This document shows positions 1-23,072 of a stretch of 64,000 bases of DNA, piece after piece; position 1 is the first letter of the stretch; each line of letters begins with the position of its first letter. The translations under genes and the position numbers were made by a program. The notes under the pieces were generated by a model. The model made no database searches and was not told the origin of the DNA. It was given only the letters and a program-made list of their open reading frames with translations. The DNA is taken from positions 12,421 to 76,420 of IMG/VR virus record IMGVR_UViG_3300030419_007903; one strand, written 5' to 3'. This DNA is from a virus.

Positions 1-722
1 TAGAATTGATCTTCGTCATCAAAAAATTGAAAAGCAGAAGATGAAGGTAGATACTCGTCAAATAATTCACAAACTCGACGAGCAGTAATATGGCCGCTAT
101 TTACTACGTTATAGATTCCAAAAGGAGCTTCCTTCTCTAATAAACTCAAACACGCCTTTACAAAGTCTGTTCGATGACTTAATGAATTTTCTTTGGAGAA
201 TAGCTTCTCGTAATTTCTAAGTTTAGATAAATAATTACGGTCACTGTCCTCTTCATCAAAGGGCATTCTTAAACGACAAATATAATGTTCGGGAGATCTT
301 TGGATAATTTTTTCCGCCATAGACTTAGTTCCCGCGTAAAAATTACATTGTGTATCCGAACTCCAATCTAAATTCGGAGCATCTTCCTCGGTAAATACTT
401 CTCCATTAACTGATTCATAAGAACACCCCGTAGAAATATGAATCAATTTAACAGATTTAATGATATTAATAAATTCTACTAAAATAGAGGGGATCACAAT
501 ATTTCCGTGAACTGCTTCCTCTTTATTTTTTTCTACTGCGTCTACTGAAGGTCTTCCTACATAACCCGCACAGTTAATAATAGTGTCGAACTGGGTCGAA
601 CAGAAACGATTTAACAAATTCTGCACACTGACATTTTCGTGACCCATGGTTTCACTATTCTCGATATTCTCGGCAAATTTTTTTCCGATATACCCGCTTG
701 ATCCTAAAATTAAAGTTGACAT
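1..722 (-). CDS. RmlD-like / NRS-ER-like dTDP-4-keto-sugar reductase (3' end outside window)
   Basis: Not in ORF track. My translation from ATG 722 gives MSTLILGSSGYIG (Rossmann GxxGxxG), INCAGYVGRPSVD, HISTGC and YAGTK (YxxxK); frame is open to the window edge; lies downstream of rmlA. Confidence 0.85.
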   Translation of the reverse strand, partial: MSTLILGSSGYIGKKFAENIENSETMGHENVSVQNLLNRFCSTQFDTIINCAGYVGRPSVDAVEKNKEEAVHGNIVIPSILVEFINIIKSVKLIHISTGCSYESVNGEVFTEEDAPNLDWSSDTQCNFYAGTKSMAEKIIQRSPEHYICRLRMPFDEEDSDRNYLSKLRNYEKLFSKENSLSHRTDFVKACLSLLEKEAPFGIYNVVNSGHITARRVCELFDEYLPSSSAFQFFDDEDQF

Positions 723-1576
723 TATATTAAATTAATTCTTTTTTTAAATTTGTTTATGTAGCTCTCGCTCTTTATAGATTGTAAGTATTCTGACACATAA
801 TTAAAGTGCATTTTTTTATTGTGCTGCAGTGCTAATTCTGCTACAAAATCCCCAAATAACACCCCTGTTCGACTTTCTACGCTTTTAATTAAGGCTGCGC
901 AATCTAAAATGTCATCAAAATTACCGCAATCAAACCAATTTAAACCGTATGAATTGGTTTTTAACACTCTCATCAGTTTATATTGCATATAATGATTTAT
1001 AACGTCAGCAATTTCATATTCCCCTCGCAGACTAGGTTTTAGCTTGCGTATTATGGAAAAAGATTCTTTTGGTAAATGATATAATCCTGTAACAGCTTGA
1101 TCACCACGAGGAGAGGTTGGCTTTTCTATGACGCGCCATAAAGTAGGATCTACCACTCCGTACTGATTTGGATTCGCCACTTGAGCTGTGAGAATCCACG
1201 GTTTTTTATAATTAATGGAGGCCTTCGAAATATCCCCAATAAAAACATTATCACCTAAAAGAGTATAGTAAAAATCTTCTTTCACATATTTTTCGCATAA
1301 ACTAATCGCATGAGCTATCCCTAAAGGTTCATCTTGAGGTATGAAAGTTATTGCAAGATGCGCTGCAGTAAAAGGCTTTATTAAAAATTTTTTATAATAA
1401 GGGATATCTTGCCGTCGAGCTACGATGCACACATGTTCTACCCCTAAGTTAATGAGAGTAGATAAACTATAGAAGAATAAAGGTTTATTATATAGAGGTA
1501 AAAGCTGCTTATTGATAATCTCCGTACAAGGGAAAAGTCTGGTGCCGTGCCCTCCTAGCAATAAAATACCTGTCAT
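722..1576 (-). CDS. rmlA: Glucose-1-phosphate thymidylyltransferase
   Basis: GILLGGHGTRLFP, KQLLPLYNKP, QDEPLGIAHA, EKP, TGLY, RGEYEI, WFDCG motifs. Confidence 0.93.
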   Translation of the reverse strand: MTGILLLGGHGTRLFPCTEIINKQLLPLYNKPLFFYSLSTLINLGVEHVCIVARRQDIPYYKKFLIKPFTAAHLAITFIPQDEPLGIAHAISLCEKYVKEDFYYTLLGDNVFIGDISKASINYKKPWILTAQVANPNQYGVVDPTLWRVIEKPTSPRGDQAVTGLYHLPKESFSIIRKLKPSLRGEYEIADVINHYMQYKLMRVLKTNSYGLNWFDCGNFDDILDCAALIKSVESRTGVLFGDFVAELALQHNKKMHFNYVSEYLQSIKSESYINKFKKRINLI

Positions 1577-1854
1577 GTTACAACATTAGGTTTTTTATGA
1601 GAAATAGGATTTACTTTAAAAACGCATCTACCCATGATGCCATTCTCATTCCCAATCACACCTTCTAAAATCATATCTTCCTTCCCAAAATCAAAATGTT
1701 TAACATCAAATTGAAAAATTTTATCATAAGTTTTAATTGTTAAAACTTGTCTTCCTTCAATCTCCGCCTCAAAATCAACACCTTTAGGTATCATCTTTCG
1801 CCCTTCCCCGTCCGCAGGGAAGTTGTTTGCCTCCATATTTAACTTTACTTTCAT
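1573..1854 (-). CDS. Hypothetical protein
   Basis: 93 aa ORF with 4-nt overlaps to both neighbours. Confidence 0.7.
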   Translation of the reverse strand: MKVKLNMEANNFPADGEGRKMIPKGVDFEAEIEGRQVLTIKTYDKIFQFDVKHFDFGKEDMILEGVIGNENGIMGRCVFKVNPISHKKPNVVT

Positions 1855-2267
1855 TTTCTAAATTCTTTTATATTATGTAACCCTATATTAAATTCTTTGC
1901 ACAGCTTCAACGCAAAATCGTCTATTTCGTATACATCTTCATAGAGAATATGCTCTATGCCGTGAGCTGCAATGGTTTGAACGCAAGCGCTACATGGCAA
2001 TAAAGTACAAGCCAAAGTATGCCCTTCGTCAGGCCTTACATATCTTAAAGCATTTATCTCGGCATGAATGACTCGTTTTCTGCGGTCATCTCTATTAGAC
2101 CAGTCAATTTCGATACCAGAAGGAGCGCCGTTATAACCCACACCGGCAACAGACCAATCATGACGTAAAACGACAGCCCCAACTTGAACATAGGGGTCTT
2201 CACTTCTCAACGATGCCGCCTTGGCCAAAGCTAAAGCATATTCTTCCCATGATAATCTAGTCGCCAC
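1851..2267 (-). CDS. dCMP deaminase (ComEB-like)
   Basis: SEDP..QVGA, GYNG, HAE and PCSAC zinc motifs. Confidence 0.93.
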   Translation of the reverse strand: MATRLSWEEYALALAKAASLRSEDPYVQVGAVVLRHDWSVAGVGYNGAPSGIEIDWSNRDDRRKRVIHAEINALRYVRPDEGHTLACTLLPCSACVQTIAAHGIEHILYEDVYEIDDFALKLCKEFNIGLHNIKEFRK

Positions 2268-2448
2268 TTAAAAAAATTTTTTTAAATCTTAACAAATCGT
2301 TTTTTATCTCTAATGCCATCTTTTTTCTAATAGCATCTTCGTCATCCATAACTTCCGTAGCGCACTCTTCGGAATATTTTTTTAATAATTTTTTTAAATA
2401 AGCGTAAGCCTCTCTCGGCTTAGCTCTTTCAAATTCGTTAATATTCAT
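2257..2448 (-). CDS. Hypothetical protein
   Basis: 63 aa helical ORF tiled between neighbours. Confidence 0.65.
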   Translation of the reverse strand: MNINEFERAKPREAYAYLKKLLKKYSEECATEVMDDEDAIRKKMALEIKNDLLRFKKIFLSGD

Positions 2449-2909
2449 TTTAAAGATTTGATATAATCGTCCTCTAAATGGTGAAATCCTCGTCTTTCAT
2501 AAAAGTCTCCAAGCTTTGCATAGGATGGCACCCCCTTAATCCGACTCATAATAATTTGATAATAATCATTTTTTATGGCAAACTCTTCTACTTGTTTATA
2601 AAGGCGAATGCATTCTAAAGAGCCGCGTTTTTCTTTAGGGCAGAACCACGCCATCTCTTTTAGTATCTTGTTTCCATTCCAAAGCGATGTAGTATTATTC
2701 ACTACAATTCCAGAGCTAGGTGGGGAGCCTGCCCCGTCAGAGGAAGCCCAACCAAGTAAAGTCTGGTTAGAGAATCCTTGGTCAAGCGACCTCTGAACGT
2801 GGGTAGGGTTATACTCACCAAATGTGAGGTGAGCATCGGACTCGTACCAAAACTCTTGCCCTAACTGGACAAAACGTAAAACGTCAGCTCTGGTAGCTTT
2901 GCGAATCAC
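2445..2909 (-). CDS. GNAT family N-acetyltransferase
   Basis: MIRKAT start, WFCPKEKRG (motif A-like), FYERRGF (motif B). Confidence 0.8.
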   Translation of the reverse strand: MIRKATRADVLRFVQLGQEFWYESDAHLTFGEYNPTHVQRSLDQGFSNQTLLGWASSDGAGSPPSSGIVVNNTTSLWNGNKILKEMAWFCPKEKRGSLECIRLYKQVEEFAIKNDYYQIIMSRIKGVPSYAKLGDFYERRGFHHLEDDYIKSLK

Positions 2910-3196
2910 ACCAACAAATCCGGCACCTCGTCAGCACTATCTTGAGTAGCTGCAGTGGTGTTTTGATTTTTAGGAGTATCCTCGTCCAAGCGCCGATTTT
3001 TATAAAGAATATAATCTGGCGCTCTGTCAGAAGTCTTGTTCTTGTTTTTGAAAACAACAAGCTCAACCTTCTCGTCATTAACGGAACAGTGGCCAGACAT
3101 AAAGTCCTGAGTTGTTCCTTGCTTCATCCACAGCGCACCGACTTCTCGTTCGCGCCACTCGTTTTTCTTAGTAGGGGTAGTAGTATTATTACTCAT
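2906..3196 (-). CDS. DUF736-like small protein (possible nucleic-acid binder)
   Basis: EVGALW...FMSG...VFKN..K...APDY pattern and acidic tail. Confidence 0.6.
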   Translation of the reverse strand: MSNNTTTPTKKNEWREREVGALWMKQGTTQDFMSGHCSVNDEKVELVVFKNKNKTSDRAPDYILYKNRRLDEDTPKNQNTTAATQDSADEVPDLLV

Positions 3197-3202
3197 ATAG
3201 GT

Positions 3203-3385
3203 TTATTTAAGGGTCTTTTCGTTTTCTTTTGACTTTAAGACCAAATCTTGTATTAAAATCTTAGTTGATTTATTCACTTTGTCAAGAAATAAAGGTGAAA
3301 TTCTGGAAATTTGTGGTCTTTTTTCTTTAACAATTTGTTCAGTGAATTTTTTACATGCAGCTCTGTTTATAACAGTAGTAATCAT
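3203..3385 (-). CDS. Small basic protein, candidate alpha3-truncated histone fold
   Basis: 60 aa from ATG 3385: INRAACKKF helix, SRIS loop, long helix, terminal KTLK. Confidence 0.6.
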   Translation of the reverse strand: MITTVINRAACKKFTEQIVKEKRPQISRISPLFLDKVNKSTKILIQDLVLKSKENEKTLK

Positions 3386-3465
3386 GTCCAAGGGTTTCCT
3401 TTTCCTTTGTAATGTAATACAACAGTCATATAAATTGACGCTATGATTAAAAAAGCTAAGTACAT
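3382..3465 (-). CDS. 27-aa hydrophobic micropeptide
   Basis: Own translation MYLAFLIIASIYMTVVLHYKGKGNPWT; fills the gap and its TGA overlaps the next ATG (ATGA). Confidence 0.5.
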   Translation of the reverse strand: MYLAFLIIASIYMTVVLHYKGKGNPWT

Positions 3466-3469
3466 AATA

Positions 3470-4012
3470 TTATCTATATTCTTCTTTTAAAAGTCTCCAC
3501 CTGTCTGGATCAAGTGCCCTTTTACCATAATCGATTTCCTTGATGGTGTCAACTACTTTTTCTATACTATCGAAAAAATAATGAGGGGGAAGCATTCCTG
3601 CAAGCCAAAGAGGTACTTTTTGTCTACCTCCTTCAATACTCACAAAGACAGGTTTTTTCATTCTATTAGCGCACATAATTTCTTCTGTCGAACCCCATGA
3701 TCCTACATGAGGTACAATATGAGCAATAATAAAATCAGATCTATCCACTAGATTCAAATCGCTGCGACGAATGGAACTCATATGATTATACACATAATCA
3801 AAACTGCCTTCTTCAAGTTTTTTATTTAAAAAATCTCGCGTATTGAAGTTTTCGTCAATGTCGCTAATAAAAGGTTTATCTAAAGGATCATAAAAAATAA
3901 TGTTAGCCTCTTTTAGCTCCTCTTTAACAAAATCTCTCCAATCTCCCGGTTCTGCATATTGCATATGCCCTACTAAATAACATCTAGTTTTATCTAAAAT
4001 ATGTTTTTTCAT
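3470..4012 (-). CDS. Nucleoside 2-deoxyribosyltransferase / NMP hydrolase-like protein
   Basis: YLVGHM, WR, YDP, DLNLVDRSD, SWGSTEE motifs; start set at MKKH (ATGA overlap). Confidence 0.75.
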   Translation of the reverse strand: MKKHILDKTRCYLVGHMQYAEPGDWRDFVKEELKEANIIFYDPLDKPFISDIDENFNTRDFLNKKLEEGSFDYVYNHMSSIRRSDLNLVDRSDFIIAHIVPHVGSWGSTEEIMCANRMKKPVFVSIEGGRQKVPLWLAGMLPPHYFFDSIEKVVDTIKEIDYGKRALDPDRWRLLKEEYR

Positions 4013-5232
4013 ACATCTGAAATTATACATGCATGTTTAGAGCATAGAGGGATATCTTTCCACGGGTAACTGCCTCCAACGCTTTCATCCCAAATATCAT
4101 CGGGCAATCCCAGCTCTAACAAGCGATTATGAATTCTACGATCATAATTATGTCGAATCATCTCTACAATTCTTTGTATCTCAGGCCGTCTACGATCAGT
4201 GGTATTAGATTGGTCACTGTTGCAATATTGAATATACCCTAATTTAGGAATATGGCAAATGCGAGATTTTAAAAAAGTTCTTACAATTAAATCGTAATCA
4301 TCTCCTACGTGCAACCGAGCATTGTGCCCTCCTACTTCATGATATAACGAAGAACGCCAACACCTTACATGATTAGCTACTCCAACAATATGTCGAATAG
4401 TCTTTTGATTAAGGCGCGGGTAATTCATAGTTAGATAGGTGCGCCCTTTGTAAAGCTCCTCCCTGTAACCCCCGTAACCAAATGCATACTCTCCGTAATC
4501 TACACATTTACCTGTGGCCTCAATAAATTCGGTGCAATCCGTATAACACATTCCAACTTGGGGGTATTTGTTAAAACTTTCTACTACCCATGCAAGACAC
4601 TCATCAGTAAGAACATCATCATGATCCAATTCACATAAAAACTCTCCTTTCCCAAGGGAAAAAGCATTTCTTTTTACTTCACCTATACGTCCACTCCGGC
4701 AATCACTCTTAAATACTTTTATTCGATGATCTGTTTTAGCTAGATCACACAAAAGGCTATAAGTCTCTCCGTCATCATCAGAATCATCATACAAAATCCA
4801 TTCCCAATTTTTATAAGTCTGATTTTGAAGGCTTTCTAGCGGCCTAAAGATTTTATCTTTGCATTTATAGGTAGGGGTAATGACAGAAACTAGAGGTTTT
4901 GAAACATTAGGCTCAAAACACTGCCGCCGATATAAATCGTAGACTTGCTCTCCTATCAACTCGATAGCATCTCCATCATTAAAATTAAGCCACTTCTTCC
5001 GAACTTCAAACGGAGCATAAGATAAAGCTTCATGTGTAGTCCAATCTCCAAAAGTAATATAGGCATTAGGACTAAGACTTTTTTCTATCGCGTCTAAATT
5101 AGCGTCAGTCTCATAGTTGAAAACAGTAATCCCCCTTTCCAACCATTCAGGAAATTCGCGATGACTATAAAGAGCCTCGATTTTTTTTCCAAAAACTACC
5201 GCGCAAATTCTGTCTGATGCATCAAACTCCAT
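4009..5232 (-). CDS. Glycosyltransferase family 2 with N-terminal extra domain
   Basis: LVSVITPTY, SLQNQTY, YDDSDD, ELDHDD, GDDYDL. Confidence 0.9.
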   Translation of the reverse strand: MEFDASDRICAVVFGKKIEALYSHREFPEWLERGITVFNYETDANLDAIEKSLSPNAYITFGDWTTHEALSYAPFEVRKKWLNFNDGDAIELIGEQVYDLYRRQCFEPNVSKPLVSVITPTYKCKDKIFRPLESLQNQTYKNWEWILYDDSDDDGETYSLLCDLAKTDHRIKVFKSDCRSGRIGEVKRNAFSLGKGEFLCELDHDDVLTDECLAWVVESFNKYPQVGMCYTDCTEFIEATGKCVDYGEYAFGYGGYREELYKGRTYLTMNYPRLNQKTIRHIVGVANHVRCWRSSLYHEVGGHNARLHVGDDYDLIVRTFLKSRICHIPKLGYIQYCNSDQSNTTDRRRPEIQRIVEMIRHNYDRRIHNRLLELGLPDDIWDESVGGSYPWKDIPLCSKHACIISDV

Positions 5233-5969
5233 TAAAGGATTTCTAACAGTTTCATTATTTCTTTTTTAGGAATATCTCTCCAAGATTCCCAGTCAGCAGC
5301 GTCTTCGTTTTTATACTGGCCGCTCTTCCACAGGCCCCGCAAAATATCTTTGAAAGTAGCAAAGTCTTCTTCTCCAAGTCCAATCTTTTGCATGAGTATA
5401 TTCAAAGGGGTAAACTTTTCTTTATTGTCTGCCTGAATCTTAGCTGGAGGCGTTCCGTTAGAGGTGTCAATTTCATCGGCTCCCACAATATGAACATTTA
5501 AAAAATTGCGCACACAGCGAACAAAAGCTCTATTTGCTGCGATTGTTTCTAAAAACTTTTGAGCGAAACTGCTGGTGTTATGAACTGTAGCATTAGCTAG
5601 ATCTTCAAACGATGTACTTGGTGGAAGAAAATCTGATTCTTCTTTCGGATTTTCAAAATTGGGAATCCAATTTATTTCACACTTTACTGAAACATGATCT
5701 ATTTCGCATTTAATAACTTCATAATGGACTCTATTAAAGCCACGCAGCTTTGCTAATTCTTTAATGCCAGATAGCTTAATTAAAAGTTGATTATCCGCAA
5801 GCCCCTCTATTGATTGAGGCATTGGTTGGTTCCTCATTTCAAACCAACCTTTATTTGGGTAAAGGTGCTCTGCGGCTATCATAGCGCGCCAGTTTACTGT
5901 ACCATCTTCGTTATATTCGTAATTTACCCCTTCGAGGAGCCCAAGTTCGTTTCGTTTGTATTGTGCCAT
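5232..5969 (-). CDS. Putative single-strand annealing protein (Rad52/Sak/ERF-like)
   Basis: IKLSGIKELA...TIAANRAFVRCVRNFL...GADEID resembles the core helix of phage annealases; followed by a linker and small C-terminal domain. Confidence 0.55.
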   Translation of the reverse strand: MAQYKRNELGLLEGVNYEYNEDGTVNWRAMIAAEHLYPNKGWFEMRNQPMPQSIEGLADNQLLIKLSGIKELAKLRGFNRVHYEVIKCEIDHVSVKCEINWIPNFENPKEESDFLPPSTSFEDLANATVHNTSSFAQKFLETIAANRAFVRCVRNFLNVHIVGADEIDTSNGTPPAKIQADNKEKFTPLNILMQKIGLGEEDFATFKDILRGLWKSGQYKNEDAADWESWRDIPKKEIMKLLEIL

Positions 5970-7168
5970 TCTATTTTTTGCCTTGCCGATCCATTAATTA
6001 ATCTATAATGATCTAACTCCTTCCAGAAGTCGTCAGTATCATAAATGAATTCAGGCGCACCTGTCAACTCTTTTTTTGCTTTTTGTGCCTCGCGACATGA
6101 ATATTTTTTTCCTTGGCTAAGCAATATTTTGCCTGACAAAAACATAGTATTATTAGAATCTAATATAAGAGGGCGGTCAGGAAAAATACGGTTATCGGTA
6201 TCTTTCTTAAGATCTTCTTTTGACTTAAAAATACTTTTATTGACCTCAAAATCAAAAAATTTGAAACGATAATCATTTATCTTGTCTAAGTCTTCGCAAA
6301 AAATTTGCACATTATTTCCTGTTGCTTTAGCTTGCCTCAAATAGTCCTCAGTAAAATGCTCATTAATATTAATTGTTAGTTGAGCTATGCTCTTCTTAAA
6401 ATATTTTAATAAATTTAAGTTGATAGGCTTATCCGTAAGAATGTTGATTTTACGATTTTGCAGCCAATGTATAGCCATTTGCTCATTAAATTCATAATCC
6501 ATTCTGAGATTAAGTGCGCGGCCTTCCATGAAGCCTTTCTGTGGCACAAAGTCAGGAATAACCTCTACTACTCTCGTTGGGTATAAATCTCCAATATGAA
6601 AGGTCTCATGCTCTACTCTATCTTCGAGCCCTAATTTTTTAAAGATCTCATTAGCAATTTTCTCTGGCTCAATAAAGTTAATAGTTTTAGGACTCTCTCC
6701 TACTCCGTAAGCGGGTAGATTACCGTCTCGATGGCTTTCTAGGCCTAAATGTGAACTGCTCCATAAGGGAGAAGTACATTGGGAAGGGTAAGGGGAATAT
6801 AATCCAATACTAGGGACATTCAAAGCTGATGCAAAATAATTAGACATATTATCACACCCAACAATTAACTTGCTATGCTTTATCAAATAGCTTTCTTGCT
6901 TTTTAAATAAATTAAGAAAAGGTTCTGCTCCTTCTATAACGCTTTGTGCGTCTTTGGCGAAGTTGTATATTATAATATTATGTTTATCAAGAACAGGCTC
7001 GATATAAGTCATTACATCTTCAAAAAGATTATAAATATTACTTTCATATTTGTTTCGGTCATCGATAATTATATAATCTTGTTCCGGTAACGGAAAATAA
7101 GAAGTACTTACAAATGGGTCTCGAATTTTAACCCCGCAATTTGATGCGTATTTTTCTAATATATTCAT
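5924..7168 (-). CDS. GT9/heptosyltransferase-like protein with C-terminal extension
   Basis: LIKHSKLIVGCDN...ASALNVPSIGLY motif typical of GT9. Confidence 0.6.
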   Translation of the reverse strand: MNILEKYASNCGVKIRDPFVSTSYFPLPEQDYIIIDDRNKYESNIYNLFEDVMTYIEPVLDKHNIIIYNFAKDAQSVIEGAEPFLNLFKKQESYLIKHSKLIVGCDNMSNYFASALNVPSIGLYSPYPSQCTSPLWSSSHLGLESHRDGNLPAYGVGESPKTINFIEPEKIANEIFKKLGLEDRVEHETFHIGDLYPTRVVEVIPDFVPQKGFMEGRALNLRMDYEFNEQMAIHWLQNRKINILTDKPINLNLLKYFKKSIAQLTININEHFTEDYLRQAKATGNNVQIFCEDLDKINDYRFKFFDFEVNKSIFKSKEDLKKDTDNRIFPDRPLILDSNNTMFLSGKILLSQGKKYSCREAQKAKKELTGAPEFIYDTDDFWKELDHYRLINGSARQKIEWHNTNETNLGSSKG

Positions 7169-9075
7169 GCTAATTCAAATTCTAGTTTATCTTTTCCATT
7201 GTGCGTATAATTAAGTACCCGTTTAGTCTCTAAGAAAGGGAGGAAAGCTATATCAAACAACCCTTCATTGTCAGCTCTGCCTTCAAAATAAAAACAATCA
7301 TCCATCTCCTCTTGAAATTCACATAATTTATGTATATGAGGGCATTGGTCAACCAAGTCAAAATATTGAGGTCGTGTGAAAAAATAAATATCGCAATTCT
7401 TATAGAGCTGTTTAAGCCCCGCTAAAACACTAGTACTCATAAAGACATCTTCAGCATGCTCAGGCATTGCGTAGGCAATTCGCATAGCGTCTCTATCGAA
7501 ATCAATTTGCTCTTTTAAAGGTTTTTTCAAAAGGTTTTGATTTTCTTTTTTTGCGGTCTGCTTGAAATAAGCCTCTACTTCTTTTCGTGTACGTCCTTTG
7601 GAATTTAACTCTCCCATCCAATATTTATGCCCTTGATCATTGGCGTCAACATCCATCTTTAATATATTTTTGTAAATATCTATTAGCCATTCTGAATTAG
7701 GAAGGCCTTCTTTACTTATATAATCTGGGTTTCTTTTTTCTACCTTGGTCAAATCTACATTATCCCAATCAATTAAAGGCATTTCATCAAAGCTTTTTTC
7801 AAAAAAGGAACCAATGGTTTCAGTTGAATAATTGTCAATTACAAACTGTCTTGCTTGAGACCCTAAGGCTCGGCGATCTTCGCCGCTCATATTATAAACT
7901 TTTGTTAATTGGTCGCAAATGGAAGAAGAAGAGGTGGAGGCTTTAATAAATTGGGTGCCGGGTTCACGGTACTCAGCCCACTCTAAAGGAAACCCTCCGC
8001 TTTCAGGGGTGCAGCTATCTTCTCCACAGCTATAATTAGTAACTAAGGTTATTAATTCAGTTAATTTAGCTTCTTGAATAGGTATTTCTTGGCCGCCGCT
8101 CGTAAATGGGTGACAGTATACATCTAATAAATTATAAATTTCATTGAGTTGAACTTCACTTACGCCATGTTTAATATTGGTTGTATGCGATACGTTCTTC
8201 ATACCGCAATTACCACAGTCTATGCCATTGCCTTCAAAAGGTTTAATTTCATATTGATTGCATGCGGGGCAAAAATAAGTAGTTAATACTAAATCATTAT
8301 CTATTTTCTTTTCTTCTAATAATCGTTTAATATCCCACCCTTCGCCCCAGTGGGTATGTAGCAGCAACTTGGCTTTAGATTCAGGATTTTTACTGATAAA
8401 AGTTTTAAAACCGTCTAATAAATTAGGAACGCTTTTACGGAGCTGATTCCTAAAAACAAACCCTATAATAAAATTATCTTCAACCTTGTATTTTTTTCTA
8501 AGATCTTCTCGCTGGGGGTGTTTAAAAAAATGAGTGCTTTCAACAATACCCCGGACTGTTTTAACGTGATCAAATCCCATTTTTTTCATTTCCTTTTCAG
8601 CAAAAGCGGCCCATACAAAATAATTTTTAATAGAAGGCGCTGCCTCTATAGACTCGGGCAATAAAGGAAGGCTATCTAAAGTAGTGTGAATAATACAATT
8701 AATTTTATTCCACCAGCTTCGTTTAGTGAAACCCGAAAATGCCCAAATATCCTCAATCCCTAAATAAATATCTGGCTTCTCTTCTTTAATAATATCATCT
8801 ATAAGTTCGTGCCCATAACCTGCAAGGCGCATTCGTCCTTGATCTTTTTGTATTTTTTTAAGGATTTGATGATCAGTTGGTAAGGTTCCAATGCATTTCC
8901 ATGGTAAATTCTCCAACTCCTCTGAAAACTTATTTTTAGCGTTAGCAAGTTCTACAATTTCATATTTTCCGGTTTTATAAAGGTATTTAAGCAAGTTCTT
9001 TTTATGCTTTCCAAATCCTGTGAAAGCCTTGCAAAAATTACTATGTACTAAGATCTTCTTTTTTCTTTCTGACAT
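7165..9075 (-). CDS. GT4-like glycosyltransferase with zinc-ribbon insert and C-terminal GT9-like domain
   Basis: TGFG, RNQLRK, YNLLDVYCHPFTSGGQEIPIQEAK; CPAC..CGNC insert; start set at MSERKKK. Confidence 0.8.
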   Translation of the reverse strand: MSERKKKILVHSNFCKAFTGFGKHKKNLLKYLYKTGKYEIVELANAKNKFSEELENLPWKCIGTLPTDHQILKKIQKDQGRMRLAGYGHELIDDIIKEEKPDIYLGIEDIWAFSGFTKRSWWNKINCIIHTTLDSLPLLPESIEAAPSIKNYFVWAAFAEKEMKKMGFDHVKTVRGIVESTHFFKHPQREDLRKKYKVEDNFIIGFVFRNQLRKSVPNLLDGFKTFISKNPESKAKLLLHTHWGEGWDIKRLLEEKKIDNDLVLTTYFCPACNQYEIKPFEGNGIDCGNCGMKNVSHTTNIKHGVSEVQLNEIYNLLDVYCHPFTSGGQEIPIQEAKLTELITLVTNYSCGEDSCTPESGGFPLEWAEYREPGTQFIKASTSSSSICDQLTKVYNMSGEDRRALGSQARQFVIDNYSTETIGSFFEKSFDEMPLIDWDNVDLTKVEKRNPDYISKEGLPNSEWLIDIYKNILKMDVDANDQGHKYWMGELNSKGRTRKEVEAYFKQTAKKENQNLLKKPLKEQIDFDRDAMRIAYAMPEHAEDVFMSTSVLAGLKQLYKNCDIYFFTRPQYFDLVDQCPHIHKLCEFQEEMDDCFYFEGRADNEGLFDIAFLPFLETKRVLNYTHNGKDKLEFELA

Positions 9076-9093
9076 ATAAAAGTTGAGGATAAT

Positions 9094-9129
9094 AAAAAAA
9101 CGCACCAACAATTCAAGTCGTTGGTGCGT
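9094..9129 (-). terminator. Intrinsic terminator after tubulin gene
   Basis: ACGCACCAAC-N10-GTTGGTGCGT hairpin followed by a T run on the minus strand. Confidence 0.75.
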
Positions 9130-9150: not shown

Positions 9151-10356
9151 TTAAGCAAATAATTGATCGGGAGCTTCAATTCCACCTATAATAGTATAGA
9201 CAACTAATCCTTTTTTAGAAGTATGGTAGATGCCCCGATGAACGGTGGAACCCTCTCCCAACAGTCGCGTTAACTGTTCAAATCCATGCTCTAGGCTTTC
9301 TTGAGGAGTATTTTCTAAAGTGTCTTTATCTCCAATGACAACACATGCAGCAAATTTTCCAGTATTAACATCAATATTGGCTAAAATATTCTTCTTTAAA
9401 TTGTCCCGTACCGCATGGCTGATATCCGTTTCTTCAATGGTATCGCCGGAAGGCCTTACCGGAACAGCTCCGAAAGAAATAATTCCAGATGACATTACTG
9501 TATCTAAGTCAGCCTTATCAAAAGCAGTATATTCAGAATCTTGCGCCGCAATCTTATTAAATAAATGAAATAGGGAGCAAATACTAGTATTTGCTGTATT
9601 CCAAAATTTATTCACAGAAAGTTTCGGATAAAGATGTTTGATCCTCTCATTATCTAAAATAATTAAAGGTGATAAAGTGCCGTTAGTTGAATATTTAATT
9701 AAAGCGTCTGCTGTTTCCTTCGCGTTATTTTTAACGCGGGAACCTTCGGATTTAGTAGGTAAAGCTAGCACGGCCCCTACTTTTGCTTCATAATCAGACT
9801 GCTCTACGCCAAAAGTCTGACATAAATCGTGGCACACATCCACTACAATAGGGCCTCCGCCAGCCCCCGTACCTCCCCCAGCACCGATACATACTAGGAT
9901 GCGGTCAATGCTGCTGCTAAAAGCTTTCTTAAGAAAATCTAGAATATCTTCTTTGTGTTCCTCAAATATTTTTTGAGCTACTTTTCTATCTTTTCCTGCT
10001 CCAGCACCTCCGATGAGCAATTTATTTTTTTCGGGTAATGCTATAGGTTTTAAATCTTGAGCTGCCGTATTGATAACAGCTACTCTTCTGTAACCTAATT
10101 TCCAAAAAGTTTCCGCTAATCGGGAACCTCCTTGGCCCACTCCCACAACAGCAAATCTATAAGCACTATCAAATTCATCTTCAATAACAACTTCTTGCGT
10201 ATCTTCGGCAGAAGGAAGAGGAATGTCTGGTATATCTACCGCCAGTTCATCAACTTCCTCAATTAAATCGGCCTTGATCTCTTCTTTATTCTCAGAGGCC
10301 TCTACTTGATTGTTTTCTGGTTCTTCCATTTTATATTCAGCTAAGGTTGGCATCAT
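9151..10356 (-). CDS. Tubulin/FtsZ family GTPase (PhuZ/TubZ-like) with acidic N-terminal extension
   Basis: GVGQGG, INT, GAGKD, GGGTGAGG signature, LDN, FDKADL T7-like loop. Confidence 0.92.
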   Translation of the reverse strand: MMPTLAEYKMEEPENNQVEASENKEEIKADLIEEVDELAVDIPDIPLPSAEDTQEVVIEDEFDSAYRFAVVGVGQGGSRLAETFWKLGYRRVAVINTAAQDLKPIALPEKNKLLIGGAGAGKDRKVAQKIFEEHKEDILDFLKKAFSSSIDRILVCIGAGGGTGAGGGPIVVDVCHDLCQTFGVEQSDYEAKVGAVLALPTKSEGSRVKNNAKETADALIKYSTNGTLSPLIILDNERIKHLYPKLSVNKFWNTANTSICSLFHLFNKIAAQDSEYTAFDKADLDTVMSSGIISFGAVPVRPSGDTIEETDISHAVRDNLKKNILANIDVNTGKFAACVVIGDKDTLENTPQESLEHGFEQLTRLLGEGSTVHRGIYHTSKKGLVVYTIIGGIEAPDQLFA

Positions 10357-10361
10357 TTCTA

Positions 10362-10961
10362 TCAAAAAGGAGCGTCATCCTCTTCAATATTTACACGTGT
10401 TTCAGACTTTTTTTCTTTATTTTGAGTAGCTGGAGTAGACTTTGTTCCTCCATCGGCTCTATATTCCTCTTCTTGTTGAGCTTTTACGTCAAAAACTACC
10501 TGAAAATATCTCTCAATTAATTTTTTTAAAACCTCAGTTTCTCCCGGTTCTAAAGCAATTCTATAATTCTGATTGCCATTACGTGTCACTGCGAGTCCAA
10601 AAGCGGGAGATTTGTAAGTTTGATCGACTCCATCTTTCCCTTTGATTTTTCTTGGCTTGTCCCACGGTGCAAAACGAATAGTAGTAGTGTTATCATTATA
10701 ATTATGGTATGAATTCCATGGAATGCGAGAACTAATAGACGATAAAATTTCTCCTAGCTCAAAGTCGTTCAACTTAAAACTTACATTTTTGTCATCCGCA
10801 TCTTTATTTTTAATAAAACTGCCGGTCTTCTTTTTATCATCCCAGCTATGTTGTTGAATAGCATTGACATAAAAAACAGGCAGTTTGCCTTGCGTAGAAA
10901 CACGAAAACTGAAAGCACATCCAGTATTTTTAGAATTGGGCTTATAAATAGCTACGTTCAT
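10362..10961 (-). CDS. Putative ssDNA-binding protein (Whirly/PC4-like) with SSB-type acidic tail
   Basis: Two beta-sheet plus helix repeats (FKLNDFELGEIL; IALEPGETEVL); ends in EEDDAPF. Confidence 0.65.
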   Translation of the reverse strand: MNVAIYKPNSKNTGCAFSFRVSTQGKLPVFYVNAIQQHSWDDKKKTGSFIKNKDADDKNVSFKLNDFELGEILSSISSRIPWNSYHNYNDNTTTIRFAPWDKPRKIKGKDGVDQTYKSPAFGLAVTRNGNQNYRIALEPGETEVLKKLIERYFQVVFDVKAQQEEEYRADGGTKSTPATQNKEKKSETRVNIEEDDAPF

Positions 10962-13843: not shown

Positions 13844-16285
13844 TTAAAAATCCACACAAACTTTATCAGATTTTTTGTCGTATTTTACAGAGAATTCTGT
13901 CTTCTGAGTATTAGCCACTATCTCTCGAGAAATAACATCTGACACCTCTCTTTGAATAATTCTTTTAATCGAGCGAGCACCAAATTCTTTATCGCTTACT
14001 TTTGTAAAAATAAAATTAGATAAGTTTCTGGAGAAACAAAGGGTAAGTCCATTATTACCCGCGCTTTCCTTCAGGTTTTTTAATTCATAATTAATTATAG
14101 ATCTTAAATTTGCATCAGATAATTTATTGAAAAATAAAACATCATCAAAACGATTGATTAATTCTAAAGGCAATAGTTTTTTAACTTCCTTAAAAGCGTC
14201 TTCTACATTTGACTCTTGCAAGTTTTCAGACCCAAATCCTAAAGATTGAGTTTTAGATAATTGAGCTGATCCTATATTTCCCGTAACTATAATAATTGAG
14301 TTATGAAAGCGACCTACGCGGCCATGCGAATCAGTCAGTCTACCTTCATCTAGAATCTGCAATAACATCTGATGAACTTTTGGGTGAGCTTTTTCTATTT
14401 CGTCAAACAAGATAACACAATGAGGATTTTTACACACCTTCTCTACTAGTAATCCTCCATTCTCGTGACCTATATAGCCCGGATTAGAGCCAGTTAACTT
14501 GGAAACACTAGATTCTTCAGAAAATTCAGACATGTCTAAGTGCATAAAGCTCTCTTTGCTCCCAAAAAAAGTACTGGCCAGCATTTTAGCTAAAAAAGTC
14601 TTGCCTACTCCAGTGGTGCCCAAAAATAAAAACGAACCAATAGGTCTATTTCCGTCTCGCAATCCACTTTTATGCCTCATTAAGCACTTAGAAATAGTTT
14701 CAACAGGCTTCTCTTGACCTACAATAACTTTTTTTAATTTTTTTTCTAAATATAGATACTTTTCTGTTTCTGATTTAAGAAACTCATCTAAAGGAATATT
14801 AGTTTTAGTAGAAAGTACTTCAAATAAATGATTACGAGTCAACTTATATTTGTTGGAGGTTATTTTATTCTGCCATGAAATTAACGCTTTTTTCAAAGCC
14901 TCAAAAGTCGTGGATTGATCGTCATTCATGTTTGTAAAAGAATTGCCAATTTTAGAGAAAGATTCCACTAATGAATTCTCAAGGTCTGCTATTTTTTTTG
15001 GTTTAACAATTTTTTTGACTTTGACGTGACTACATGCCAAGTCCATTAAATCAATTGCCTTGTCCGGAAATTGTGAATCAAGCATATAGCGATCTGAATA
15101 ATCGACTATGTCATTAAGTATTTCTTCAGAAATAGCAACTGAATGATATTCTTCATAAATAGTTTTTTTTCGTAAAAGAATCTCTAAAGTAGATTTTTTA
15201 CTAGGCTCATTAATAACCAAAGATTGGAATCTTCTTTGAAGAGCTTTATCTTTTGTGAATTTTTGCCGATATTCTTTGAATGTAGTAGCCCCTACAACTG
15301 TTATTTCTCCATTAGATAAGGCGGGCTTGAGTATATTAGCTGCATCTAAACCTCCCTCTGCGTCTCCAGCCCCGATTAAAGTATGAATTTCATCTATAAA
15401 TAATATAACAGAATCATGCTTTGCTTCTTCAATTACCTGTTTTATGCGGGCCTCAAACTCTCCACGGTATTTAGTACCGGCAAGCATAGAGCTTAAATTC
15501 AGTTCATAAAAAATTTTGTCGTTAAGAAAAAATGAAGATTTATTGCGGACAATGTTTTGAACTAATGCTTCTACCACAGCAGTCTTGCCCACTCCAGCTT
15601 CTCCGATAATAATAGCGTTATTCTTCTTTCTCCTGTTTAAAATATCCTCAAGCTTGCTAACTTCTTCTTCTCTGCCGTAAACGGGATCAAGTTTATTTTC
15701 TAAAGCTTTTTGAGTCATATTTGTTCCCAACTTATCTAGCAGCGCAAAATGCTGACGCTGACTAGAAGAGCTAATCATATCTTGAACAGTCCCTTCATTC
15801 ATAGAGCTCGAAATATCATTGCTATCTTCAGCATCACACAAATAATCTAAAACTTTTGTAGTGACAAAGTTCATATCAACACCAAGAAAGACTAATATCT
15901 CGTCCGGAATTAATGCTATATCTTTAAATATAGCCATAAAAATATGCTCAGCGCTCACCCATGAATGAGACAAATCTTGCGCCAACTGAGTCGCGTTTTT
16001 TAACACTTCTTTTAACTCGGCAGAAAGCTTGAATTCATCGGGTTTTAATTTCTCTGGCTGCTCCACCAAAACAGTTGCGTATAGGTGATGTCGGAAATTA
16101 TTGAGGTCCAGACCGGCCTCAACTAAAACTTCAATGCATCGACTTTTCTTCAATTCAAAGAATGCTGCAAATAAATGTGCCACACCTACATCTGTGTAGT
16201 TGAGTTCTTGCGCTATCTTCTTACAAAGCTGCAACAGCTTTTGCGAGCGAGGGGTAAAATTAATATCTTGGTTATCTAGCGTCAT
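13844..16285 (-). CDS. clpC: ClpA/ClpC-type AAA+ unfoldase
   Basis: Clp N-terminal repeats, GEAGVGKT/FIDEIH, GTTGVGKT/LFDEIEKAH, SLGF ClpP-docking loop. Confidence 0.92.
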   Translation of the reverse strand: MTLDNQDINFTPRSQKLLQLCKKIAQELNYTDVGVAHLFAAFFELKKSRCIEVLVEAGLDLNNFRHHLYATVLVEQPEKLKPDEFKLSAELKEVLKNATQLAQDLSHSWVSAEHIFMAIFKDIALIPDEILVFLGVDMNFVTTKVLDYLCDAEDSNDISSSMNEGTVQDMISSSSQRQHFALLDKLGTNMTQKALENKLDPVYGREEEVSKLEDILNRRKKNNAIIIGEAGVGKTAVVEALVQNIVRNKSSFFLNDKIFYELNLSSMLAGTKYRGEFEARIKQVIEEAKHDSVILFIDEIHTLIGAGDAEGGLDAANILKPALSNGEITVVGATTFKEYRQKFTKDKALQRRFQSLVINEPSKKSTLEILLRKKTIYEEYHSVAISEEILNDIVDYSDRYMLDSQFPDKAIDLMDLACSHVKVKKIVKPKKIADLENSLVESFSKIGNSFTNMNDDQSTTFEALKKALISWQNKITSNKYKLTRNHLFEVLSTKTNIPLDEFLKSETEKYLYLEKKLKKVIVGQEKPVETISKCLMRHKSGLRDGNRPIGSFLFLGTTGVGKTFLAKMLASTFFGSKESFMHLDMSEFSEESSVSKLTGSNPGYIGHENGGLLVEKVCKNPHCVILFDEIEKAHPKVHQMLLQILDEGRLTDSHGRVGRFHNSIIIVTGNIGSAQLSKTQSLGFGSENLQESNVEDAFKEVKKLLPLELINRFDDVLFFNKLSDANLRSIINYELKNLKESAGNNGLTLCFSRNLSNFIFTKVSDKEFGARSIKRIIQREVSDVISREIVANTQKTEFSVKYDKKSDKVCVDF

Positions 16286-18897
16286 TTTAAGTCAGAAAGT
16301 TTCATGTAAATTCTTTGATCTAAAACACTCATGTCGTTTACAAAAACAGTTCCATCTCCTTTACGGCCTGTGATTATAGCAATGGAGTCTTTTTCTGGCA
16401 AGCTTTTTCCTTTATTTAAATACGGCTGATATTCTCTCTCCATAAATATACACTTAGCCTCTGAAGTTTCATCTGACGCGACAATAAAATAATACTTTTT
16501 ATTAGTCTGTGAAGTTTTTTTAAGGCATGACTTGACCGTTCCTACAAATTTGACAAAAGCATTATCAGTAAGCTCGAATATTTCTTTGCAGGTTATCATA
16601 GAATCTTTGTCCCGGCCTCTAAATGTATCTTTAAGTTTCTTGGTATAACTATAACCTAATAATTGTTTTTCAAAATACCAATTAGCAAAATCTTCATTAT
16701 TGCCTTCATTATTTTTATCATAGATAGATTTATAGGGTTCATATTTAGCTTTGAAAGTCGCAAGGCGACTAGGCTTCATGAAAGGACGGTTATCGTCTCC
16801 CATTAGTGGAGGTTCCGTCTGCGTTGCCCTTTTAATAATTTTTAAAATGTCATAATTATATTCTTCCCCTAAAGCTTTGGCTATTCTTCTTTCTCTATCT
16901 GTTAAGATATTATAAGATTGAGCTTCTAATACTAGCCGAGCTCTAGAATTGCTCCCCGCAAAAGAGTTTAAAGTCCCTGCTTGAATCAATCCTGAAAAAA
17001 CGCCTATATTTATTCCTGCTTGCTTGGCTGCCTCAAAGACTTCAAATTTATTTAATTCCTCCGGACTACCTTTTCTGAAGGTCAGGATACTTTGAAGGCT
17101 TTTCAAGCTCACTCCTTTTATTGCGTCTAGACCATAACGAATATTTTTACCTTCAATCGAAAATTCTTCTTGAGATTTTGCTAAGTCAGGACGTAATAAC
17201 TTCATTTCATACATAGGTAATTCGGAAGCTACCTTGCTTATTTGGTCAAACGGCTCCGACTCATTTTTGGCCATCTTAAGGAGAGCTACAAAAAACTCTT
17301 GTGGATATTTAAATTTAACATAGGTTGTCCACGCTGAAAGCATAGCATAAGAAATCGAATGAGACTTATTAAAAGAATAGTTGGCACTATCTTCCGCCAC
17401 TTGCCACAATACATCTGCTATCTCCATTCCTCGATGCCCAGTCCATGCGTTAGTTAAGCGCTTTTCCTCTACTTTTTTGGCAATCTTTTCCCTCCATGCG
17501 GGCATCTGGTCAACTTTCTTCTTGCCTACAATTCGACGGAGCTGTTCCGCTTCATCTAAGGTAAATCCTACCTTAACCGCCATTTTCATTAACTGCTCTT
17601 GATAAAGCGGAATTCCTCCTGTATAATCTAATATTTCTGAAAACTCAGGATGCACTAATTCTGAGTCGCCGGTTCTAATATAAGAAGCATATTGGTCTTT
17701 AAAATTTAAAGCCCCGGGTCGCGCGATAGCTACCACCGCTGAAATCTCTTCTAAATTTCGAGGTTTTACTTTGCAGCATACATCAAAATTAGTATCTGCT
17801 TCAATCTGAAATAATCCCTGCCCTCCCCGAAAACGAAGGTCTTGTAAATTTTTATAAATAAAATCATCTTGCAAGTCAATCTTTTCAAAGTCAAGATCTA
17901 TCCCTTGCGTAGTTTTGAGCATATTTTTTGCATCATTAATCACCGTTAAAGTTTTTAACCCAAGTATATCAAATTTGACTGTAAGCTCAGCGATCCAATT
18001 CATATCATAGCAAGATATTAAATCTCCATCTTTAGTCTTTTGAATTGGACAAATATCAGTTAATTGATGATGCGAAATAGCAATCCCTGAAGCGTGAACA
18101 CCTGTGTTCTTGATTAACCCTTCGAGCTTTCGCGCTACATTAAATGCTTCAGGATGCTTCTCGGTCCAATCTGAAAACTTTTCACTCTCTTCTTTCGCTG
18201 TGTTGAGTTTGGCTACTTTGCCGAAAACCACGGGAATCTGGTCGCTAACATCATTCATTTCATCCTCACTTAAAAGGCCAACTAGTTTTCCAACTTCTTT
18301 AATGCAAAGCTTGCCGCTTAATGTAACTAAATTTAAAATTTTACATGTACGGCCTTTATATTTTCTTTTAATATATTCAATAACTTCTGATCGACGATCA
18401 TAAGCAATATCGTTATCGACATCAGCTAATAAACTTCCATCTAAATAAGTAACTCCATTTTTTTCAATTTTACGCGCTCTGGTACGGGAGACGAACCTTT
18501 CAAAAAATAAATCATATTTCAAAGGATCAACTTTAGTGACCCCTAAAAAATATAAAACTAAACTGCCTGCGGCCGAACCCCTTCCCGGCCCCGTGGGAAT
18601 ATTATTTTCATGGCAAAAATTTAAGACTTCCCAGTTTAATAATATGTAATCAACAAAACCTAATTCTTCAAAAATAGAAATTTCCATCTTCATTCGGTCG
18701 ATGTAATTTTTATCTTTTGTCGTAAAGCCTTTAGCTCGCATATTTTCACTACATAGCTTTTTAAGAAATTGCAGATTTGAACTATCTGAAGAAATGCCTA
18801 ATTCTCGATAATACTTTTCTTCAATATTGATCTTAGGAAGTAGCACTCCTGCAGGAGCGCATTCATCGTAAGTGGTAAAATTGCTATAAAAACTCAT
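16282..18897 (-). CDS. dnaE: DNA polymerase III alpha, catalytic part lacking the PHP domain
   Basis: GPGRGSAAGSLV, FERF, DVDND, HASG, KFDILGL, YQEQ, YSFNKSH, C-terminal OB fold. Confidence 0.95.
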   Translation of the reverse strand: MSFYSNFTTYDECAPAGVLLPKINIEEKYYRELGISSDSSNLQFLKKLCSENMRAKGFTTKDKNYIDRMKMEISIFEELGFVDYILLNWEVLNFCHENNIPTGPGRGSAAGSLVLYFLGVTKVDPLKYDLFFERFVSRTRARKIEKNGVTYLDGSLLADVDNDIAYDRRSEVIEYIKRKYKGRTCKILNLVTLSGKLCIKEVGKLVGLLSEDEMNDVSDQIPVVFGKVAKLNTAKEESEKFSDWTEKHPEAFNVARKLEGLIKNTGVHASGIAISHHQLTDICPIQKTKDGDLISCYDMNWIAELTVKFDILGLKTLTVINDAKNMLKTTQGIDLDFEKIDLQDDFIYKNLQDLRFRGGQGLFQIEADTNFDVCCKVKPRNLEEISAVVAIARPGALNFKDQYASYIRTGDSELVHPEFSEILDYTGGIPLYQEQLMKMAVKVGFTLDEAEQLRRIVGKKKVDQMPAWREKIAKKVEEKRLTNAWTGHRGMEIADVLWQVAEDSANYSFNKSHSISYAMLSAWTTYVKFKYPQEFFVALLKMAKNESEPFDQISKVASELPMYEMKLLRPDLAKSQEEFSIEGKNIRYGLDAIKGVSLKSLQSILTFRKGSPEELNKFEVFEAAKQAGINIGVFSGLIQAGTLNSFAGSNSRARLVLEAQSYNILTDRERRIAKALGEEYNYDILKIIKRATQTEPPLMGDDNRPFMKPSRLATFKAKYEPYKSIYDKNNEGNNEDFANWYFEKQLLGYSYTKKLKDTFRGRDKDSMITCKEIFELTDNAFVKFVGTVKSCLKKTSQTNKKYYFIVASDETSEAKCIFMEREYQPYLNKGKSLPEKDSIAIITGRKGDGTVFVNDMSVLDQRIYMKLSDLK

Positions 18898-19526
18898 ATC
18901 TCTACATTCCAAATAAGTTTATTAAAAATTTTGAGAGTCATCTCGACATCATAAATCGCATCGTGCAGCTTCTTTGGGTCAAATTCAATATCAAACTCTT
19001 GCAAAAGAGTTTGTTGTCTAGTTTTTAGGCCTCTCTGTATATAGTTGTTAAGCTTACATTGCCAAAAAGTTAAATTACCATCGGGCTGCTTTAGTCCTAA
19101 CTTATAGGCTTTAGCGATACAATTTGTGTCTATAATTCTATTCATATAACTATAATCAGTTTTTTTGCCGCACATCTTTCTTAATATGTTATGAATGTAA
19201 ACATCAAAACCAATTACATTGTGACCTATTAAAAGATAATCCTGATTATATAAATAATTATCAAAAAACTCTAGAACCTGCGCCGGCTTTTTCTTTTTTT
19301 TATCATGAGTTGACTGATTAAATCCAGTAATTTTTTTTGCCTCTGGGGAAATATCTAAGTCTGGTACATCAATATGAAGATCGTATCGATTAAGTATGTT
19401 ATTGCCTTCTGTGACAATAAAGCCTAATTGCCACGGTCGAGAGTATCTTAGGTTTAAACCCTCGGTTTCAAAATCGAATACAATATATTTCTGCTTCTTT
19501 CTAAAACGTAATAAACTATTGGTCAT
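18894..19526 (-). CDS. DEDDh 3'-5' exonuclease (DnaQ/epsilon-like)
   Basis: FDFETEGL, GHNVIGFD, LHDAIYDV. Confidence 0.9.
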   Translation of the reverse strand: MTNSLLRFRKKQKYIVFDFETEGLNLRYSRPWQLGFIVTEGNNILNRYDLHIDVPDLDISPEAKKITGFNQSTHDKKKKKPAQVLEFFDNYLYNQDYLLIGHNVIGFDVYIHNILRKMCGKKTDYSYMNRIIDTNCIAKAYKLGLKQPDGNLTFWQCKLNNYIQRGLKTRQQTLLQEFDIEFDPKKLHDAIYDVEMTLKIFNKLIWNVEI

Positions 19527-19971: not shown

Positions 19972-20059
19972 TGGTACCGATGGCCGGACTCGAACCGGCA
20001 CTCCTTCAACAGGAAACGGATTTTAAGTCCGTCGTGTCTACCAATTCCACCACATCGGC
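19972..20059 (-). tRNA. tRNA-Leu (anticodon UAA), CCA encoded
   Basis: GCCGATG acceptor, GGTAGAC D-loop, ACGGA-CTTAAAA-TCCGT anticodon arm, long variable arm, GGTTCGAGTCC, ACCA. Confidence 0.95.
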
Positions 20060-23066: not shown

Positions 23067-23072
23067 ATGAAA

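Follow-up and report, generated by a model that had tools for sequence, protein, structure and literature searches.

The open reading frame P0001, at positions 3203–3385 on the minus strand of the window (the whole stretch of 64,000 nucleotides analysed here), encodes a protein of 60 amino acids which, judged by profile comparison, is distantly homologous to the alpha3-truncated histones known from archaea and bacteria. We refer to it as the mini-histone. The reading that we favour, and to which we give a probability of roughly 0.6, is that of a minimal two-helix histone which forms a handshake dimer, binds double-stranded DNA (dsDNA) non-specifically and acts on replicating phage DNA. On this reading it probably dimerises and associates with DNA while the phage replicates.

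Results

The mini-histone gene and its flanking sequence

The source record is a 76.4-kb IMG/VR virus with a CheckV completeness estimate of 53% and a GC content of about 36%, and nearly all of its genes lie on the minus strand. The genome size of the phage is roughly 144 kb. The mini-histone gene runs from an ATG at 3385 to a TAA stop codon at 3203–3205 and comprises 60 codons. Its product contains 14 lysines or arginines versus 6 aspartates or glutamates, giving a net charge of +8 and a pI of 10.1, in agreement with the earlier note on this DNA, which had described a basic protein of 60 residues. The annotation of the coding sequence as a two-helix histone-fold protein is based on the reading frame and its translation, the family of relatives, a profile match in the PDB and structural models, each of which is described below.

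Upstream of the gene is an AT-rich spacer of 84 nt (3386–3469, minus strand), in which direct reading of the sequence shows a purine-rich, Shine–Dalgarno-like AAAGGAAAAGGAAA 10–24 nt before the ATG. Such a spacer is unusual here, as neighbouring genes are otherwise tightly packed, and it is possible that it holds a promoter specific to the mini-histone gene. A promoter and terminator scan gave no more than shuffled sequence did (7 promoter sites versus 5.9 expected), and aligning the upstream regions with those of relatives was uninformative. Downstream, the ATG of the next gene, which encodes a DUF736-like protein of 96 residues (2906–3196, minus strand), lies 6 nt past the mini-histone stop codon, so that the short C-terminus cannot be put down to misassembly or a frame error.

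The stretch carrying the mini-histone gene recurs in seawater metagenomes from 16 studies. Contigs from four seawater runs, one of which may be the source, carry the gene with 0 differences and no indels. The possibility that the reading frame is spurious was also considered, and was ruled out by conservation and synteny.

A family of small proteins in uncultured phages

A word-indexed search and a full HMMER scan initially gave only a few relatives, of 59–64 residues. Re-searching with alignments widened the family to about 125 clusters at 90% identity, with constant length. A first scan of IMG/VR viral contigs with a narrow family alignment gave no match; later, broader alignments did give loci there, and 45 IMG/VR loci carrying the family were gathered.

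The family divides into three subfamilies by length and C-terminus. Subfamily (i) is the marine group of the window, ending in KT[LI][KR]; subfamily (ii), a sister or 'stub' group, has 64–69 residues and ends in ...GKTIxDLF; and subfamily (iii) has 57–60 residues and ends in ...PSVGKTIK. Comparison of (i) with (ii) by hhalign gave a probability of 99.7% (E 1.5e-26), and the median net charge is +6 to +7, with a pI of about 10, in all three. Longer family members of 108–206 residues were seen at five loci (L019, L029, L030, L033 and L036, with the match at about position 5001 in each); these contain an insertion of about 45–60 residues in the middle of alpha2 and are always encoded just upstream of a PolA gene.

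The location of the gene is also conserved. In five related IMG/VR contigs (L002–L006), which are fragments that are 25–52% complete, the mini-histone gene occupies the same place, in the order homolog of window 5232–5969, mini-histone and then, directly, homolog of 2906–3196.

Existing resources scarcely cover the family. With Pfam and PHROGs, no family could be assigned to the mini-histone or to diverse relatives; none of the Pfam histone models matched the mini-histone itself, PF00808 being hit (E 0.11) on one relative only; and a search of the phage record for DUF1931 (PF09123) found no match. Neither megablast of window positions 1–9000 nor tblastn of two family members found a match among 50,697 GenBank phage records. 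The neighbours of the mini-histone in the ESM Atlas are Uroviricota clusters without a name, the sole named one having PF00808 on 14% of its members at a score of 0.86; we take this cluster as a lead only towards a histone identity.

A pattern scan of genome contigs gave no relative of the window's own subfamily. The stub subfamily was seen on 16 short Planctomycetota MAG contigs (L047–L062), from bins assigned to Sedimentisphaerales, Phycisphaerae and Pirellulales, and on one Acidithiobacillales MAG contig. The planctomycete contigs are probably phages or prophages of planctomycetes, and the MAG contigs give a hint of the host for the stub subfamily only. Planctomycetes also have cellular 'bacterial dimer' histones.

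Sequence homology to an alpha3-truncated histone

Profiles of the mini-histone family were searched against 177,635 PDB sequences. The first match in every search was HTkC (PDB 9F2C, 59 residues), a face-to-face (FtF) alpha3-truncated histone of Thermococcus kodakarensis (Schwab et al. 2024, PMC11390915). Its E-value was 0.64 with a profile of 5 sequences, 0.0017 with 11, 6.4e-4 with 62 and 2.2e-6 with 38 diverse sequences. In this last and broadest search the match to 9f2c_A scored 30.9 bits with a bias of 0, and the second match had an E-value of 0.2. A match to a histone profile had been named beforehand as a check on the assignment, and HTkC supplies it. HTkC was the sole solved histone to be matched; HBb (Bd0055) of Bdellovibrio bacteriovorus and HLp of Leptospira perolatii were not matched by the family profile at E-values up to 10.

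The alignment of the mini-histone with HTkC is colinear over nearly the full length, and alpha2 is gapless from RVSP to KTL. The phage residues R28-I-S30-P31 pair with RVSP of HTkC, F33 and D35 with its F and D, and K57-T58-L59 with KTL, while P24 is shared. A broad family alignment (A6) shows an invariant T58 and at least 90% conservation of R28 and S30, with N7 also among the top positions; in the subfamily alignment (A3) the invariant residues are I6, N7, R8, P24, P31, D35, I45, K57, T58 and L59. By alignment, the most conserved residues are at the canonical histone DNA-contact positions, and these loop and alpha1-cap residues, together with the charge, suggest that the protein may bind DNA.

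The RxTxxxxD motif of alpha3-truncated histones is incomplete: T58 stays, but E stands in the place of the R in this protein (Q or G in relatives) and the position of the D lies beyond the C-terminus, which leaves L2 short of part of its canonical architecture. The earlier note had recognised two histone motifs, R-[IV]-S in loop L1 and R/K-K-T-[VIL] in loop L2. The residues R28/S30 and K57/T58 are indeed conserved and align with HTkC, but the first residue of the second motif is E in this protein.

Predicted fold and the missing alpha3

An AlphaFold2 model, built on an 11-sequence alignment, had a pLDDT of 90.4 and the layout of a histone fold, with a short helix, a loop, a long central helix and a second loop. 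The segments are as follows (all on the minus strand). Helix alpha1, defined by DSSP on the model, comprises residues 8–22 (3320–3364). Loop L1, residues 23–30 (RPQISRIS; 3296–3319), contains the conserved P24, R28 and S30 and aligns with the RVS of HTkC. The long helix alpha2, residues 31–51 (3233–3295), is colinear with alpha2 of HTkC. L2 and the C-terminal tail, residues 52–60 (3206–3232), are non-helical in the model and end in K57-T58-L59-K60, the first three of which are invariant in A3. No alpha3 follows, as the chain ends two residues past the invariant T58. The sequence of helix, loop, long helix and terminal KTLK proposed earlier is therefore retained, with the corrections that alpha1 extends to K22 and that L1 spans eight residues rather than just RIS.

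The lack of alpha3 had been claimed for this protein as well, and it is a conserved property: in 69 of the 125 family proteins the chain ends one residue past KT[ILV], and another 50 keep a four-residue alpha3 stub. Alpha3-truncated histones have been defined as having an alpha3 of 3–4 residues and an alpha2 that is 4–5 residues shorter than that of nucleosomal histones (PMC11390915). The mini-histone has the shortened alpha2, which aligns gaplessly with that of HTkC. An alpha3 of 3–4 residues is present in the stub subfamily (ii) and not in the window's protein; the window's subfamily is one step beyond the definition, with alpha3 absent altogether. The joint loss of the R and the D of RxTxxxxD would make sense in this light if the role of the pair is to fix alpha3 in position.

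Structure searches, among them the Foldseek comparison that the earlier note had proposed as a check, returned almost exclusively histone folds. The best 50 Foldseek rows listed were all histone-fold chains, with HBb (9f0e_A) as the top match (TM 0.67/0.68, rmsd 2.0 over 58 columns), although the E-value was only 1.2. In an exhaustive aligner independent of Foldseek (VIA), the best 20 rows were likewise all histone folds, including TAF4 (Z 6.3), HTkC (Z 5.6, rmsd 1.8 over 53 residues, 24% identity), HLp (Z 5.2) and HBb (Z 4.8). Taken singly, these scores are weak, with Foldseek E-values of at least 1.2 and Z-scores of at most 6.3, a range that is common for small helical models. The Z-scores are unconvincing alone because the model is small and helical; they become convincing together with the sequence result. 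A model of the stub subfamily (ii), with a pLDDT of 78.5, again matched TAF4, HTkC, HBb and HLp. Profile and models combined make the assignment of a histone fold to the mini-histone solid.

A predicted handshake dimer and its DNA-binding sites

The homodimer was modelled next to three controls. The ipSAE was 0.83 in each of three runs, compared with 0.00 for the best control; at least 98% of the contacts agreed between runs, and the partner pLDDT was 90. Of solved structures, 20 of 30 one-chain pairs and 1 of 23 single chains reached the ipSAE mark, counts that are rough, with a custom alignment used. The contacts with the lowest error were 41:41, 37:45 and 37:48, then 45:15 and 49:18, and then 6:6 and 7:7. 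In the dimer model the two alpha2 helices run antiparallel and cross each other at residue 41, alpha1 packs on alpha2 of the partner, and the alpha1 N-termini meet across the dimer axis (6:6 and 7:7). These are the contacts of the histone handshake, whose appearance in models had been set as a further check. The pass may in part reflect likeness to, or recall of, solved histone dimers, and to that extent it would not be independent evidence.

The model predicts that mini-histone chains interlock as a symmetric handshake homodimer. Such a dimer would offer two L1/L2 sites, in each of which R28 and S30 from one chain adjoin K57 and T58 from its partner, as well as a central site formed by the paired alpha1 N-termini (N7, R8, K12 and K13). 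In crystals of HLp with DNA, the DNA is held by the paired alpha1 ends and by the L1/L2 beta-bridge, including the L2 threonines (PMC12701072); by analogy, the alpha1 cap I6-N7-R8 plus K12/K13 is a candidate for the 'paired ends of helices' DNA site. The L1/L2 and central sites would together grip the phosphate backbone of dsDNA without sequence specificity.

How such dimers would assemble further can be considered from the FtF tetramer interface, which consists of the C-terminal part of alpha2, L2 and alpha3 (PMC12701072). Without alpha3, the mini-histone would lose part of this face-to-face interface as well as the RxTxxxxD pair. For these reasons a bending dimer, like HBb, seems likelier than a wrapping tetramer, like HLp.

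Genomic context and alternative explanations

In the window, the mini-histone gene is part of a long minus-strand run that also encodes DnaE, a DnaQ-like exonuclease, a SET-domain protein, DnaB, RecA, RNR and dCMP deaminase, together with a PD-(D/E)XK nuclease, a ClpB-like ATPase, a TubZ-like tubulin and many sugar-metabolism genes. For other lineages, context was taken from ten annotated neighbour proteins, from the 45 IMG/VR loci. Relatives are found directly after PolB (L009–L012, L017 and L018), directly before PolA with a DUF2800/PD-(D/E)XK nuclease upstream (L019, L029, L033 and L036), and between an Mre11-like phosphoesterase and a Rad50/SbcC-like ATPase (L007). A role in DNA transactions is supported because placement in replication and recombination modules recurs in unrelated lineages. 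No structural or packaging genes were found beside mini-histone family genes among the annotated neighbours, and a role in virion packaging has no contextual support. Judging from this context, the mini-histone would be made with replication, recombination and nucleotide-metabolism genes and would organise or shield intracellular replicating phage DNA.

The same neighbours could also indicate a narrower function, that of an accessory subunit of the replisome or recombination machinery. Histone-fold adaptors of this sort are Dpb3–Dpb4, which serve Pol epsilon, and MHF1–MHF2, which serve FANCM. The mini-histone would then be a dsDNA-gripping adaptor docking on a phage polymerase or nuclease, and not a general coat. 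This would account for the gene adjoining PolB, PolA and Mre11/Rad50-like genes in lineages that share little else, and the structure matches do include Dpb4–Dpb3 and MHF chains, at Z 4.1–4.4. However, in the window's lineage the gene is about 13 kb from DnaE and adjoins the DUF736-like gene and glycosyltransferase genes, and the partner families differ between lineages (Pol III alpha, PolB, PolA and SbcCD), which argues against one specific partner. We consider an accessory subunit unlikely.

The DUF736-like gene is the constant downstream neighbour in the window's lineage only (L002–L006). Its 96-residue product matches PF05284 weakly (E 0.0077) and falls short of the curated cut-off, the nearest ESM Atlas clusters carry DUF736 on 13–34% of their members, and a comparison with PDB sequences gave no match. 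It ends in an acidic tail (...DSADEVPDLLV), which is reminiscent of SSB tails.

A basic protein that is rich in conserved DNA-contact positions might instead be directed at the host, as a dimer that binds or compacts the host nucleoid, or displaces its proteins, early in infection. HLp expressed heterologously reorganises the E. coli nucleoid (PMC12701072). Against such a takeover factor, no takeover genes were recognised next to the mini-histone, the neighbours being replication and metabolism genes, and nothing separates host from phage DNA as the target. We therefore regard this explanation as distinctly unlikely.

The fold could also serve purely as a scaffold, without DNA binding, in a protein–protein dimerisation module or small regulator comparable to DUF1931 pseudodimers and several TAFs. 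The best structural match, TAF4, also shows only alpha1-L1-alpha2, the mini-histone has lost both the R of RxT and the aspartate of alpha3, and DUF1931 proteins are histone folds that lack DNA-binding residues (PMC12701072). A scaffold of this type is nevertheless very unlikely, given that all three subfamilies have kept a net charge of +6 to +8 and that conservation is strongest at R-x-S of L1, K-T of L2 and the alpha1 cap, not only in the hydrophobic core.

The window's SET-domain gene (19523–19966, minus strand) encodes 147 residues matching PF00856 (E 8.6e-12). Its 3′ end overlaps the gene for the DnaQ-like exonuclease (18894–19526) by 4 nt, and the latter overlaps DnaE (16282–18912). SET is kept in all five same-lineage relatives and is absent from five other phages that have the mini-histone family, three of which are complete. 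The mini-histone and SET were considered as a general pair, which proved unsupported outside the window's lineage. A pair with a GNAT acetyltransferase (2445–2909) was rejected too, as this gene is without counterpart in the contigs of the five relatives (fragments, 25–52% complete). Since SET was absent from those five phages and the acetyltransferase has no counterpart in the relatives, there is no conserved pairing of writer and histone beyond shared ancestry. It is highly improbable that the SET-domain lysine methyltransferase of the phage uses the mini-histone as its substrate, marking replicating phage DNA; if true, the two would form a writer-plus-histone pair, a rudimentary phage 'chromatin' in a tailed marine phage. 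In a less exotic form of the idea, the dimer would be a dedicated dsDNA clamp for phage polymerases or nucleases, by analogy with Dpb3–Dpb4 for Pol epsilon.

Least probable of all is a chance resemblance, in which a generic basic helical hairpin has no kinship to histones: small helix-loop-helix models gather many middling structural matches and a TRAP DctP segment matched one family profile at E 0.028, but with the broader profile the HTkC E-value gains five orders of magnitude while DctP fades to 0.48, the alignment is colinear over almost the entire protein, and the dimer geometry is histone-like.

Other genes in the window

Several other features of the window deserve mention. A TubZ/PhuZ-like tubulin (9151–10365, minus strand) matches PF00091 (E 1.5e-14), has a TubZ-like C-terminal domain and is about 70% identical in L002–L006. 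A ClpB/Hsp104-like two-ring AAA+ protein of 813 residues with a Clp_N domain (13844–16285, minus strand) is conserved in relatives. The DnaE reading frame (16282–18912, minus strand) begins at the NTPase domain and lacks a PHP domain, and a PHP-domain reading frame of 283 residues (22311–23162, minus strand) lies about 3.4 kb upstream of it; the two may represent a split Pol III alpha.

Sugar genes are unusually many, at window positions 1–9111 and about 30000–60400. They include GT2, GT1-like and GT9-like glycosyltransferases, a nucleotidyltransferase, RmlD/epimerase-like enzymes and a cytidylyltransferase, and among them are a weak nucleoside 2-deoxyribosyltransferase-like gene (3470–4030) and the dCMP deaminase. 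This gene set could serve glycan synthesis or DNA hypermodification. A predicted tRNA-Leu(TAA) (19972–20059, minus strand) overlaps the last 54 nt of the cytidylyltransferase-like reading frame (20006–20485) and ends 6 nt before the ATG of the SET gene. Either the end of that reading frame or the tRNA call is doubtful, and the overlap needs checking.

Discussion

To our knowledge, histones of bacteria and their viruses were recognised only in 2023–2025, and we know of no phage-encoded one that has been tested at the bench. The mini-histone may mark the minimum of the histone fold, as it has no alpha3 and yet shows a confidently modelled handshake dimer and the loop residues of DNA contact. Its family is common in uncultured phages, is missing from Pfam, PHROGs and GenBank phage annotation, and sits next to three different polymerase families as well as Mre11/Rad50-like genes. 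This raises the question of whether a histone dimer serves phages to organise or assist their DNA as it replicates. A profile for the family would also put a name to a 'hypothetical protein' that recurs in viromes from the sea and from sediments.

Of the solved histones, HTkC is the closest in sequence. The two proteins are of near-equal length (59 versus 60 residues) and share P, R-V/I-S-P, F-x-D and K-T-L. HTkC, unlike the phage protein, has a short alpha3 and the full RxTxxxxD, and it also forms a torus-shaped tetramer; the phage protein ends two residues past the threonine, carries E, Q or G where HTkC has the arginine, and is longer by about five residues ahead of alpha1.

HBb (8CMP, 8FVX, 9F0E and 9EZZ), an alpha3 histone of the 'bacterial dimer' type, is the best Foldseek match, with TM 0.67–0.69 and rmsd 2.0–2.5. 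HBb is small, basic and strictly dimeric, and bends DNA (PMC12701072); DNA-bending behaviour of the HBb type may be inferred for the phage mini-histone by analogy. In contrast to the mini-histone, HBb keeps a short alpha3, and the family profile did not reach it at E-values up to 10. HLp (PDB 9QT0) belongs to the FtF alpha3 histones and wraps about 60 bp of DNA (PMC12701072). It superposes on the mini-histone model with an rmsd of 1.8 over 51 residues (Z 5.2), and its DNA contacts (the alpha1 N-terminus, L1 and the L2 threonines) correspond to the positions most conserved in the phage family. The tetramer interface of HLp, however, includes alpha3, which the mini-histone lacks.

The closest match by Z-score is the histone-fold domain of TAF4 (1H3O chain C), with Z 6.3 and an rmsd of 1.4 over 49 residues. 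The matched chain has only 49 residues and aligns over model residues 4–54, that is, alpha1-L1-alpha2, which shows that a two-helix histone fold can pair. TAF4 differs in being a eukaryotic heterodimer partner, of TAF12 in TFIID, and no sequence kinship to the mini-histone was detected.

Phage-encoded histone folds have been catalogued before. Schwab et al. (2024) described 'phage histones' with a C-terminal tetramerisation helix, catalogued computationally (PMC11390915), and Liu et al. (2025) described the VTTHFP, VHHHFP, VFFHFP and BBVHFP groups of Caudoviricetes from an HMM screen of IMG/VR4 at E < 0.001 (PMC13681535). The mini-histone resembles these in being a phage-encoded protein of the alpha3 type from metagenomes, known as a prediction. 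The Schwab phage histones and the VTTHFPs have a long C-terminal helix, no RxT threonine motif and conserved K10, G17, R30 and K49. The tetramerisation helix that characterises them is absent from the mini-histone, which ends at L2 after 60 residues, and the family as a whole has neither a C-terminal helix nor alpha3 and keeps K-T in L2. VHHHFPs are like the mini-histone in lacking the tetramerisation helix, but unlike it they keep an alpha3 stub and a 7-residue loop. Because its similarity to FtF profiles is so weak, the mini-histone family probably fell below the E < 0.001 cut-off of Liu et al. and was missed by those screens, and the published descriptions set it apart. The family represents a divergent form of the small phage histones that computational surveys have already listed.
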